Origin: Escherichia coli | GTDB taxonomy: Bacteria > Pseudomonadota > Gammaproteobacteria > Enterobacterales > Enterobacteriaceae | DNA: 64,000 nt | Reading direction: 5' to 3' (one strand) | Assembly (NCBI RefSeq): GCF_001677475.2 | Contig: NZ_CP015229.1 | The notes under the pieces: model-generated | Databases searched by the model: none | The model's input: the letters and a program-made list of their open reading frames with translations, nothing else | What the model was told of the DNA's origin: nothing | In this document: positions 23,903-27,044 of the stretch, piece after piece | Layout of the letters: every line of letters starts with the position of its first letter | Numbering within the stretch: position 1 is the stretch's first letter | Translations under genes and position numbers: made by a program

Positions 23903-25030
<1,128 letters not shown>

Positions 25031-25472
25031 TTATGTTGGCGTTTTCTATTCAGTATAGAAGTGGGAGCGACTGGGCGAGATGCGGAAGTTCTGGAATGTT
25101 TCTTTTTTTGGTGATGGTGAACTGATTGTGACTGAAGAAGTTTGGCTACTTTTGCAATGTGACAAGTTATGGCAGAGCTGGCTGGTGGCGAAGAATTTTG
25201 ACGATTGAGGCATGCAGAAAAAAACGGGTTCAGCTTCAGTTGATCAAATGAGGAGTGAGAAGTCTGAAACAGGACTAACTGTATAAATAAACAGCTATTT
25301 TGCTGAGGAAGGGTAAGATAACGGCGGGTGCCTGAAGCTTTCCGGTTTCAGGTTTACTCTGAGGTCTGGAAAGATGAAGCCCCAGGAGATATTTCTATCA
25401 ACCCTGGGGCTGCCACTCCAAACCCGAACAATTTGGATGGTAGTCCCTTCTTCGCATGGAGGCAATATAAAC

Positions 25473-25625
25473 ATGCTGACGAAATATGCCCTTGTGGCAG
25501 TCATAGTGCTGTGTTTGACGGTACTGGGATTTACGCTTCTGGTCGGAGACTCGCTGTGTGAGTTTACGGTGAAGGAACGTAATATTGAGTTTAAGGCTGT
25601 TCTCGCTTACGAACCGAAGAAGTAG
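25473..25625 (+). CDS. hokE: Hok-family membrane toxin, copy 1
   Basis: ATG at 25473; 50 aa [50 protein letters not shown], typical Hok single-TM toxin. Confidence 0.85.
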
Positions 25626-25876
25626 CCGTTGTGCGGGGAGTAATCCCCGCATATCCGGTTGTCAGGTCAGGGTGGTAAGGCACCTGCTTTACACTTTCGC
25701 CCGCGGTCAGCAATGGCTGCGGGCGATGTCGTTTTAAGGGCAATGATCAGTTTTGCCAACAGAAGTCCGAAACAGGATTCACTGTATAAATAAACAGCTA
25801 TTTTGCTGAGGAAGGGTAAGATAACGGCGGGTGCCTGAAGCTTTCCGGTTTCAGGTTAACTCTGAGGTCTGGAAAG

Positions 25877-26065
25877 ATGAAGCCCCAGGATGATATTTCT
25901 ATCAACCCTGGGGCTACCTACCCAAACCTGAACAATTTGGATGGTAGTCCCTTCTTCGCATGGAGGCAATATAAACATGCTGACGAAATATGCCCTTGTG
26001 GCAGTCATAGTGCTGTGTTTAACGGTGCTGGGATTTACGCTTCTGGTCGGAGACTCGCTGTGTGA
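25877..26065 (+). CDS. mok-like overlapping reading frame, copy 2
   Basis: 62-codon ORF ([12 protein letters not shown]...) starting upstream of and overlapping hok copy 2 in a different frame, the arrangement of mok in hok/sok systems; assignment rests on arrangement only. Confidence 0.45.
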
Positions 26066-26129
26066 GTTTACGGTGAAGGAACGTAATATTGAGTTTAAGG
26101 CTGTTCTCGCTTACGAACCGAAGAAGTAG
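25977..26129 (+). CDS. hokE: Hok-family membrane toxin, copy 2
   Basis: ATG at 25977; 50-aa product identical to copy 1. Confidence 0.85.
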
Positions 26130-26250
26130 CCGTTGTGCGGGGAGTAATCCCCGCATATCCGGTTGTCAGGTCAGGATGGTAAGGCACCTGCTTTACACTT
26201 TCGCCCGTGGTCAGTGATGGCTGCGGGCGAATCGTACCAGATGTTGTCAA

Positions 26251-26871
26251 TTAATCGTGTTGGCACAGCGTTATGACTATTTTTTCTTTTATCTGCCAGT
26301 GCACAGCAAACTGCTCATCCTCTAGTCGAATGATGATCTGCTGTTTATTCCAGCTAATTATCTGATAATCCAGAAAACCTTGAGCGGCCTGTATCTTGCT
26401 TGCCTTAAATGCGCTCTCTTTGGCGGAAAATGCCAGTGTCAGCGCCAGAGAAAAGGTTAAACCGCATTCTGCGAGTCGCTCGTGTTCTGCTGGTGTAATA
26501 ATGTTGTCTGTCAATTCTCTTGCGGTTTGTACAGAGAAAATCTCTTCGATATCAATGCCAATCGGTTGACGAGTTACCACGGCTAATGCCGTAGCCCCAC
26601 AGTGGCTAATACTGCCGTATACCTCCGCAGGCCACACAGGTTGGCGTAGCTCGCCGATTGCGGGCACACATTTATAGCCATATTCCCGCAGCGCATAAAC
26701 TGCAGCGATCCGTCCGGCTAAATGCTCTGTTTTACGTTTACGTCCAGCGTGTTGCAGTTGTGCGTAGTGCGGCAGCCAGAGTAAATCCTGCTCGCGAAAA
26801 CTCGCCGGATCAAACTCAACAAAATGCAGCGTATGTCCTGCAAAGGGGAGGGAGGTATGCGTAGTTTTCAT
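26251..26871 (-). CDS. entD: Enterobactin synthase 4'-phosphopantetheinyl transferase EntD
   Basis: Start trimmed to MKTTHTSLPFAGHTLHF (cat at 26869..26871); 206 aa. Confidence 0.9.
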   Translation of the reverse strand: MKTTHTSLPFAGHTLHFVEFDPASFREQDLLWLPHYAQLQHAGRKRKTEHLAGRIAAVYALREYGYKCVPAIGELRQPVWPAEVYGSISHCGATALAVVTRQPIGIDIEEIFSVQTARELTDNIITPAEHERLAECGLTFSLALTLAFSAKESAFKASKIQAAQGFLDYQIISWNKQQIIIRLEDEQFAVHWQIKEKIVITLCQHD

Positions 26872-26908
26872 GTCGACCATATTAGAGAATGATGACAAAC
26901 GCAAAACT

Positions 26909-27006
26909 GCCTGATGCGCTACGCTTATCAGGCCTACGTGGTCCTGCAATATATTGAATTGGCAAGATTTTGTAGGCCGGATAAGGCGTTCACGCCGCAT
27001 CCGGCA
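26909..27006. repeat. REP/BIME element (two inverted REP units) between entD and fepA
   Basis: gcctgatgcgctacgcttatcaggcctac ... tgtaggccggataaggcgttcacgccgcatccggca; classic enterobacterial REP sequences. Confidence 0.75.
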
Positions 27007-27044
27007 TGAACGACGCGCACTTTGTCAACAATCTGACGTTAGCA

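Follow-up and report, generated by a model that had tools for sequence, protein, structure and literature searches.

The ybdK–entD interval of the window, a 64-kb stretch of E. coli DNA, holds two hokE/sokE units arranged head to tail. With a probability of about 0.9, the locus is the chromosomal hokE/sokE type I toxin-antitoxin system in its common two-unit form, the product of an old duplication that is polymorphic within Escherichia. Sequence and database comparison shows each unit to be a complete module, with a LexA core, an RF01794 leader, a leader ORF, an SD, a Hok ORF, a 3' pairing element and a predicted Sok RNA of ~60 nt (Table 1). The two-unit layout is not new, having been annotated and published already, and the tandem finding carries little weight as the rediscovery of a common polymorphism.

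Repeat geometry and toxin ORFs

The first-pass annotation had described two near-identical head-to-tail units of ~503 bp, forming a hok/sok-type type I toxin-antitoxin pair between ybdK and entD, and both statements are borne out by direct repeats and pairwise alignment. The tandem units have a period of 503/504 bp and an identity of ~96-97%. Two direct repeats, each 97% identical, were detected, one with a spacing of 503 (25258-25387/25761-25890) and one with a spacing of 504 (25388-25687/25892-26191). In the pairwise alignment, unit 1 is similar over ~25258-25727 to the stretch 25761-26231 of unit 2. The 3' flank of unit 2 is the same as that at single-copy loci. The units differ at 18 positions, one indel among them, which rules out a chance match and argues against an artefact of duplicated reads. 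Tandem Repeats Finder reported no repeat at the locus, but this is because the period of 503-504 bp lies above its 500-bp limit and is not evidence against the repeat. A third direct-repeat family, D3 (24604, 25463 and 25967), was rejected as a short chance similarity inside ybdK.

Table 1. Features of the hokE/sokE locus and its flanks, in window coordinates.
Feature	Position	Strand	Basis or remark
ybdK	23903..25021	-	Flanking ORF; name from RefSeq annotation at matching loci
hokE/sokE unit 1, conserved repeat core	25258..25727	+	Direct-repeat families D1, D2 and pairwise alignment
LexA (SOS) box core CTGTATAAATAAACAG, unit 1	25279..25294	+	CTGT-N8-ACAG match
Putative -10 TAAGAT of hok mRNA promoter, unit 1	25314..25319	+	6 nt 5' of Rfam match start and fold-back helix (25326)
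Predicted full-length hokE mRNA, unit 1 (ends inferred)	25326..25736	+	Rfam match start, MFE fold, 3' hairpin
SokE antisense RNA, unit 1	25370..25429	-	60/60 identical to curated MG1655 sokE (b4835)
Leader (mok-like) ORF, unit 1	25374..25625	+	83 codons; ATG in frame with hok; contains hok
Predicted Sok promoter, unit 1	25437..25465	-	Relaxed sigma-70 scan: -35 TTGCCT (25465-25460), 17-nt spacer, -10 TACCAT (25442-25437)
hokE toxin ORF, unit 1 (50 aa)	25473..25625	+	Pfam HOK_GEF, E = 2.5e-8
Tyr46 codon TAC in UACG context	25608..25610; unit 2 26112-26114	+	A-to-I editing site reported for hokE
GC-rich hairpin directly 3' of hok stop	25633..25650; unit 2 ~26137-26154	+	K-12 IS186 insertion site
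Predicted 3' fold-back (fbi-like) element	25678..25685; unit 2 26182-26189	+	MFE fold of both predicted mRNAs
Inter-unit junction spacer (~33 nt)	25728..25760	+	Alignment; little similarity to sequence 5' of unit 1
hokE/sokE unit 2, conserved repeat core	25761..26231	+	Direct repeats and pairwise alignment
LexA (SOS) box core, unit 2	25782..25797	+	CTGT-N8-ACAG match
Putative -10 TAAGAT of hok mRNA promoter, unit 2	25817..25822	+	As unit 1; sequence identical in register
Predicted full-length hokE mRNA, unit 2 (ends inferred)	25829..26236	+	Rfam match, fold-back helix, hairpin
SokE antisense RNA, unit 2	25873..25933	-	Equivalent of unit 1 Sok
Leader (mok-like) ORF, unit 2	25877..26065	+	62 codons, not in frame with hok; stops within hok, as in the classical mok layout
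Predicted Sok promoter, unit 2	25941..25969	-	Relaxed sigma-70 scan; same hexamers as unit 1
hokE toxin ORF, unit 2 (50 aa)	25977..26129	+	Protein identical to unit 1 Hok
entD	26251..27000	-	Flanking ORF; name from RefSeq annotation at matching loci

Complete 50-codon Hok ORFs had been called at 25473..25625 and 25977..26129, and both were recovered exactly. Pfam PF01848 (HOK_GEF) covers Hok residues 5-46, corresponding to model positions 1-42 of 42. The window HokE shares 49/50 residues with K-12 HokE, the one change being V8A, and is identical to WP_000956465.1, which RefSeq names HokE ('toxin HokE'). The protein scores below the cut-offs of two NCBIfam models, NF007290 (HokA equivalog; 49.2 bits against 89) and NF007279 (Hok family subfamily; 40 bits against 73), both of which were made for other Hok paralogues. 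Editing of hokE reaches 40% in K-12, and Cys46 is important (PMC12214031); conversion of Tyr46 to Cys through TadA editing may be required for full toxicity.

Predicted hok mRNA and Sok RNA of each unit

CTGT-N8-ACAG has only two matches in the 64-kb window, one per unit, where 0.62 would be expected by chance. Among 68 units surveyed from 40 genomes, 67 carry the LexA-box core. hokE is among the listed LexA-box genes (PMC2826370, PMC11228462); its box has a heterology index of 4.9, and the same K-12 study saw no SOS induction of hokE (PMC11228462). The K-12 hokE locus in that study is IS-disrupted. By their boxes, the hokE units appear to fit the LexA (SOS) regulon, and LexA may hold hok transcription down until DNA damage.

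The hok promoter of unit 1 has a poor -35 that overlaps the LexA box, and the TAAGAT hexamer is found in 68/68 units. A strict sigma-70 scan found no promoter at the locus for either hok or Sok, and a relaxed scan found no convincing -35 for hok. Since the strict scan gave no site, the promoter of hok and the ends of its mRNA are predictions. Rfam RF01794 matches both units over the full length of the model and above its gathering threshold of 59, with 84.4 bits from 25326 in unit 1 and 86.8 bits at 25829-25985 in unit 2. Rfam matches to mir-1990 and Ysr224 were discarded, with scores far under their gathering thresholds.

In the MFE folds an 8-bp helix closes each predicted mRNA, pairing 25326-25333 with 25678-25685 in unit 1 and 25829-25836 with 26182-26189 in unit 2, so that a modelled 5'-3' fold-back (tac/fbi) is found in both. 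By analogy with the plasmid R1 hok model, the function of the fbi-like element would be to pair with the mRNA 5' end. A 3' hairpin follows in each unit, at 25697-25726 before TGTCGTTTTA in unit 1 and at 26201-26231 before ATCGTACCAG in unit 2. A U-tract after this hairpin is absent from unit 2 and from all single-copy loci.

The R1 model and published work suggest how such a module would operate. The 5'-3' fold-back would lock the full-length hok mRNA, which would refold once its 3' end has been trimmed. Hok would then be made only if ribosomes on the leader ORF reach the hok SD, and the single-stranded 5' tail of Sok would pair with the leader, leading to a block and degradation. The window locus resembles plasmid R1 hok/mok/sok in its Hok/Gef family toxin, RF01794 leader, leader ORF upstream of hok and predicted 5'-3' fold-back, and its Sok resembles R1 Sok in having a 5' tail, a terminator hairpin, a U-rich end and a promoter that overlaps the hok SD region. 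Unlike the R1 system it is chromosomal and has a LexA box. Compared with the R1 mok start, the leader ATG of the window locus is also placed further upstream, and that of unit 1 shares the hok frame, whereas the R1 overlap is out of frame.

The earlier description of the tandem as intact holds for both Hok ORFs but needs a caveat, since the frame of the mok-like leader ORF differs between the units. Both leader ORFs pass the hok SD. Across strains the frame is not conserved, and three states occur among the 68 units: in frame with hok (30 units; the state of K-12, E. albertii and E. whittamii), out of frame and overlapping hok (20 units), and stopping upstream of the hok SD (18 units). Hok synthesis requires mok translation that reaches the hok SD (PMC9841398), and the variable frame puts in doubt how, or whether, hokE translation may be coupled to that of the leader.

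The Sok RNAs could be placed by mapping the curated MG1655 sokE, whose position in K-12 is 44-103 nt upstream of the ATG of hokE. The first-pass annotation had tentatively put Sok on the minus strand opposite the leader, at roughly 25337..25400 and 25840..25903; the strand was correct, and the positions were ~30 nt off. The unit 1 Sok folds into a 5' tail, a stable hairpin and a U-rich end (z = -5.2), and the unit 2 Sok differs from it by one inserted base in the hairpin loop and, in the 20-nt 5' tail, by five substitutions. The 5' end of the curated sokE is 8 nt downstream of the -10 found in the relaxed scan. Each unit thus appears to encode a cis-encoded antisense Sok with its own predicted promoter.

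Variation in the Sok 5' tail

Of all 20-nt windows in the unit, the Sok 5' tail is by far the most variable, with 0.215 differences/site. The next-highest window has 0.108, the median is 0.034 and hok third codon positions have 0.074. Units in the same genome differ at 0.26/site in the tail and at 0.038 elsewhere, and in none of the 26 multi-copy genomes sampled (15 distinct combinations) do co-resident units have identical tails. The tails fall into at least four discrete haplotype classes, which occur at either unit position; the window has the K-12-type in unit 1 and the 'B'-type in unit 2, and the pair in EDL933 is 'C' and 'D'. The variable, always-differing tail may be new as an observation.

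It is possible, though on balance doubtful, that the units are insulated paralogues, in which selection keeps the Sok tails different and each Sok mainly controls its own hok mRNA. The tail variation described above is in keeping with this, as are the predicted tail duplexes, which are stronger for cognate pairs (-41.4 and -38.0 kcal/mol) than for cross pairs (-25.6 and -24.4 kcal/mol). [quoted passage not shown] Sib RNAs repress cognate targets only (PMC2943612), which is a precedent and the model for such insulation, although the toxin families and RNA architectures of ibs/sib and ldr/rdl are unrelated to those of hokE/sokE. Against this, the duplex of Sok1 on leader 2 keeps 12 contiguous pairs, so that cross-repression is possible, and the tail may simply be unconstrained, any change altering antisense and target together. 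The tail excess is also suggestive only, at ~2.5 SD by a rough coalescent estimate, as it comes from just 20 sites in phylogenetically related genomes. That co-resident hokE units are kept as specificity-diverged Sok/hok pairs, with tail classes that are long-lived across Escherichia, is accordingly a tentative proposal. If true, it would mean that diversifying or balancing selection favours insulated antitoxin RNAs inside a tandem hok array. The tail hot spot is relevant to the question of how type I toxin-antitoxin modules, once duplicated, escape cross-talk or make use of it.

Two other ideas about the tails were rejected. One was that the four classes are what deletions have left of an array of 3-4 units once fixed in an ancestor; genomes disagree on the order of the classes (both A-B and B-A occur, as do both A-C and C-A). 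A unit-specific G/A difference at ~25666/26170 had seemed a candidate for compensating tail changes through long-range pairing in the MFE fold, but it does not track the tail haplotype across strains.

Conservation, distribution and age of the duplication

One or both units could instead be decaying relics that lack regulated toxin function, inactive passengers of a neutral duplication. This is unlikely, and there is evidence on both sides. The unconserved leader ORF frame, with 18/68 leaders stopping before the hok SD, and the missing U-tract in unit 2 and all single-copy loci would be expected of relics; in addition, chromosomal hok loci tested earlier gave no post-segregational killing (bioRxiv 10.1101/2025.08.07.668861), and K-12 hokE is IS-disrupted. 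However, the hok ORF is intact in 68/68 sampled units, and its diversity per site of 0.006, 0.019 and 0.074 at codon positions 1, 2 and 3 points to purifying selection. No change is seen in 68/68 units in the hexamers of the Sok promoter, in the hok SD or in the editing context of Tyr46, CTCGCTTACGAACCG, and variation within the unit is lowest at the 5' end of the leader and in the Sok-promoter/SD segment. Overexpressed HokE is also toxic (bioRxiv 10.1101/2025.08.07.668861, a 2026 preprint).

K-12 has a single hokE copy with an adjacent IS186, as had been stated in the first pass. K-12 MG1655 hokE/sokE (b4415/b4835) is like the window locus in its ybdK–entD position, LexA box, leader and in-frame leader ATG. 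It has one unit, which carries IS186B within the GC-rich hairpin, 18 nt beyond the stop codon of hok, whereas the window has two uninterrupted units; the insertion parts K-12 hok from its 3' fold-back element. Unit 1 is 98.5% identical to the K-12 unit up to the insertion point, and the alignment breaks at window position 25647 and resumes at 25636/26140 past the IS. The single interrupted unit of K-12 would be one derived state, and the locus illustrates how poorly K-12 serves as a reference where chromosomal hok loci are concerned. In natural E. coli, two or three uninterrupted hokE/sokE units with SOS boxes are often present, and conclusions drawn from the IS186-disrupted K-12 hokE may therefore not transfer to them.

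The reading as an old, polymorphic two-unit locus is carried by the distribution of the junction between the units. A 91-nt query (25700-25790, coverage 80% or more) finds it in 2,298 of 5,426 complete E. coli genomes (~42%), across phylogroups and in O157:H7, O55:H7, O111:H2 and ExPEC/AIEC strains. A homologous junction joins two units in E. whittamii, Escherichia sp. MOD1-EC7003 and SCPM-O-B-8794, and a single unit is present in E. albertii and Escherichia sp. E1V33. RefSeq annotates hokE x2 or x3 at matching loci, and the unit number among strains is 1, 2 or 3, which is probably due to unequal recombination. Local duplication has produced hok islets frequently in Escherichia, comprising 13.5% of chromosomal hok genes (bioRxiv 10.1101/2025.08.07.668861).

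The sharing of the junction with other Escherichia lineages, together with the ~4% divergence of the units, indicates that the duplication is old, neither recent nor an assembly artefact. The first-pass annotation had implied that an intact tandem was unusual and suspected recent recombination; neither idea survives, the first in view of the junction count, the RefSeq hokE x2 annotation and PMC7232551. It had also allowed that a tandem might prove to be the common ancestral state, and the comparison across E. coli points that way: the shared junction suggests that the tandem may be ancestral to E. coli, although E. albertii and E1V33 have one unit.

A recent, strain-specific duplication that alters toxin dosage is very improbable. 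With two identical Hok proteins and two LexA boxes the potential output of toxin would be doubled, and strains do differ in hokE copy number, from 1 to 3, but the non-tail differences within a genome (19.1) are at the level of those across positions between genomes (19.6), and the junction extends through the E. coli phylogroups to E. whittamii and other Escherichia lineages. The same equality of within-genome and cross-position divergence gives no support to concerted evolution, in which gene conversion homogenises the units. That unit 2 arose in assembly, through artefactual expansion of a repeat in the source genome as the first pass had also considered, is scarcely credible, since an artefactual copy would be identical and not differ at 18 positions including an indel, and the junction recurs in 2,298 independent complete genomes. 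Moreover, 66 complete genomes are at least 99% identical to the window across 25395-25945 (unit-1 tail to unit-2 tail). The two of these 66 that were inspected have the same two-unit gene layout.

The same duplication at the same locus was described in 2020 as hok-2.1/hok-2.2 of the adherent-invasive strain NRG857c, 504 bp apart (PMC7232551), and appears as 'hokE (x2)' in RefSeq, for example in O157:H7 EDL933. Like the window, these loci lack an IS and space their hok starts by 504 bp, and they differ from it only in allelic differences.

Identity and signals of the hokE pair

The two head-to-tail copies between ybdK and entD form a tandem hok/sok-type module, as the first-pass annotation had it, and the Hok ORF coordinates proposed there agree exactly with the ORF positions found. 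The two-copy repeat is real, since pairwise alignment recovers it together with two direct-repeat families, each of 97% identity, at 25258-25387/25761-25890 (spacing 503 bp) and 25388-25687/25892-26191 (spacing 504 bp). The spacings differ because of a single-base indel at 25388/25891. Tandem Repeats Finder reported no repeat at the locus, solely because the period exceeds the 500-bp limit of the tool. The Hok proteins of the two units are identical, match Pfam HOK_GEF (E = 2.5e-8) and differ from K-12 HokE by a single residue (V8A). The plus-strand leaders of both units cover the Rfam hok/sok model RF01794 at full length, scoring 84.4 and 86.8 bits (gathering score 59).

Features of the hokE locus in window coordinates (for features of the units, paired positions are unit 1, then unit 2)
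Feature	Position	Strand	Remark
ybdK	23903..25021	minus	upstream neighbour; named from RefSeq annotation of matching loci
Extent of similarity	~25258 to 25727; 25761 to 26231		pairwise alignment
LexA box core CTGTATAAATAAACAG	25279-25294; 25782-25797		
hok promoter -10, TAAGAT	25314-19 (unit 1)		putative
Fold-back helix	25326-33 with 25678-85; 25829-36 with 26182-89		MFE fold
SokE	25370..25429; 25873..25933	minus	unit 1, 60/60 identity to curated MG1655 sokE; unit 2, its equivalent
Sok 5' tail	25410-25429; 25914-25933		
Sok promoter -10	25442-25437; 25946-25941	minus	relaxed scan
hokE toxin ORF	25473..25625; 25977..26129	+	50 aa each
Tyr46 codon, UACG context	25608-25610; 26112-26114		
Inter-unit junction	25728-25760		~33 nt; hardly resembles sequence upstream of unit 1 (alignment)
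entD	26251..27000	minus	downstream neighbour; named from RefSeq annotation of matching loci
ES036/naRNA4 region, entD-fepA	26930..26971; 26975..27016	-; +	Rfam

The curated sokE of MG1655 (b4835) lies on the opposite strand, 44-103 nt upstream of the hokE ATG, and mapping it here moves the antitoxin about 30 nt from its earlier tentative position. The fold predicted for both Sok RNAs has a stable hairpin between a single-stranded 5' tail and a U-rich end (z-scores -5.2 and -6.6). A strict promoter scan found no sigma-70 site; a relaxed scan found TTGCCT-17 nt-TACCAT on the minus strand of both units, with 8 nt from the -10 down to the curated Sok 5' end. The hok -10 and mRNA ends are those we infer. 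In the predicted full-length hok mRNAs of both units an 8-bp helix joins the 5' end to a 3' element, a counterpart of the tac/fbi fold-back of the plasmid R1 hok mRNA. The pattern CTGT-N8-ACAG has only two matches in the window, one per unit, and hokE is among the recognised LexA-box genes (PMC2826370, PMC11228462). A-to-I editing has been reported at the UACG context of Tyr46 in hokE (PMC12214031).

The leader (mok-like) ORFs differ in frame, which is shifted by a one-base indel in the Sok hairpin loop. In unit 1 the ORF (ATG 25374) has 83 codons in the hok frame, like the in-frame leader ORF of K-12, and in unit 2 (ATG 25877) it has 62 codons out of frame, running past the hok Shine-Dalgarno (SD) and stopping within hok in the classical mok arrangement. 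Mutagenesis in R1 showed that leader translation has to get to the hok SD but does not have to continue beyond it (PMC9841398); as predicted from the sequence, the leader ORFs of both units do so. The frame varies among 68 units, being in frame in 30, out of frame and past the SD in 20, and ending upstream of the SD in 18.

Opposite the hok leaders, at 25295..25504 (-) and 25856..26008 (-), RefSeq has a "hypothetical protein" of some 89 aa, mostly flagged as frameshifted or with an internal stop. This ORF is probably spurious, its "frameshifts" reflecting polymorphic indels in the hairpin loop and tail of Sok. In unit 1 (25697-25736) the 3' hairpin is followed by a U-tract and resembles an intrinsic terminator; the U-tract is part of the junction sequence made by duplication. 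The hairpin lacks a U-tract in unit 2 (26201-26245) and in all single-copy loci.

Distribution, age and constraint

The locus was matched in 5,415 of 5,426 complete E. coli genomes, and a 91-nt query spanning the junction between the units (coverage >= 80%) found that junction in 2,298 genomes (42%), including O157:H7 EDL933, O55:H7 and O111:H2. RefSeq annotates hokE twice, occasionally three times, at two-unit loci. In 66 genomes the stretch spanning the tails of units 1 and 2 has at least 99% identity, with unchanged gene layout in both of those examined. The pair had also been published: NRG857c hok-2.1 and hok-2.2, 504 bp apart without an IS, are listed as a duplication of a hokE homologue (PMC7232551). 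The tandem hokE/sokE pair is thus already known and common, and the view of an intact pair as something unusual or recent is refuted; the first-pass annotation had itself named common two-copy loci as contrary evidence, and cross-genome comparison finds them. More broadly, type I toxin-antitoxin loci tend to duplicate in tandem (PMC2887945). A survey of the Hok coding sequence that left out Sok and Mok places 10% of Hok genes, and 13.5% of the chromosomal ones in Escherichia, in islets of 2-6 copies from local duplication (bioRxiv 10.1101/2025.08.07.668861).

Other states are a single unit; a single unit with IS186, as K-12 has; a pair whose first unit carries IS186; and a pair with another gene island after it instead of entD. 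In a collection with one genome per species, two units with a homologous junction occur in E. whittamii, Escherichia sp. MOD1-EC7003 and SCPM-O-B-8794, and a single unit in E. albertii and Escherichia sp. E1V33. Units 1 and 2 show 18 differences in total, with 5 substitutions in the 20-nt Sok tail. Outside the tail, units show 19.1 differences within a genome versus 19.6 across positions between genomes, and same-position units are slightly closer (15.7). Combined, the distribution and divergence data point to one old duplication, which would have been followed by loss and exchange. The distribution across genomes and species and the within-genome divergence rule out a recent duplication, and likewise an assembly artefact.

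Among 68 units from 40 genomes, the hok ORF is intact in all, diversity per site is 0.006, 0.019 and 0.074 at codon positions 1, 2 and 3, and there is no variation in the two Sok promoter hexamers (-35 and -10), around the hok SD or in the Tyr46 context. These sequence patterns argue for maintained function of the hokE units.

The Sok recognition tail

Variation within the unit peaks in the Sok 5' tail, which would pair with the hok leader; at 0.215 differences per site it exceeds every other 20-nt window (next highest 0.108, median 0.034). There are at least four discrete tail haplotype classes, found at either unit position (loci L001-L010 and L060-L089 from other genomes), and in none of 26 multi-copy genomes (15 distinct combinations) do two units share a tail, in a small sample of phylogenetically related genomes. 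Cognate tail duplexes are predicted at -41.4 and -38.0 kcal/mol versus -25.6 and -24.4 kcal/mol for cross duplexes. The latter keep up to 12 contiguous pairs, so cross-talk is possible. Antitoxin RNAs that act on their cognate targets only have a precedent in Sib/Ibs (PMC2943612). Functional insulation of co-resident Sok/hok pairs is a tentative and rather doubtful reading here.

Insertions and neighbouring features

The K-12 IS lies within the GC-rich hairpin directly past the hok stop, with the remainder of the unit beyond it. Strain 98232 (L063 1-1928) also has IS186 after the first hokE, and its downstream second unit is uninterrupted in the stretch examined, suggesting that this hairpin (window equivalent 25633-25650) is a recurrent IS186 target. 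In some strains (L064 4329-7321, L067 2038-3091, L069, L078 and L079) an island for SDR oxidoreductases and a sugar ABC transporter directly follows the second hokE unit, replacing entD. The 3' junction of that unit differs in these strains, which places the hokE array beside a variable insertion point.

A 42-codon ORF between ybdK and unit 1 (25080..25208, +) is annotated in only some RefSeq genomes, where it is a hypothetical protein (for example WP_001225242.1 in L003 and WP_021038080.1 in L065). In E. albertii NBRC 107761 a blastn gap covers most of ybdK (relative to window 23914-25154), and the gene may be missing or very divergent in that genome. The stretch between entD and fepA has an Rfam match to the ES036 (CssrF) sRNA (42.2 bits, gathering score 37.6), adjoined by a partial, below-threshold match to the REP-like naRNA4.
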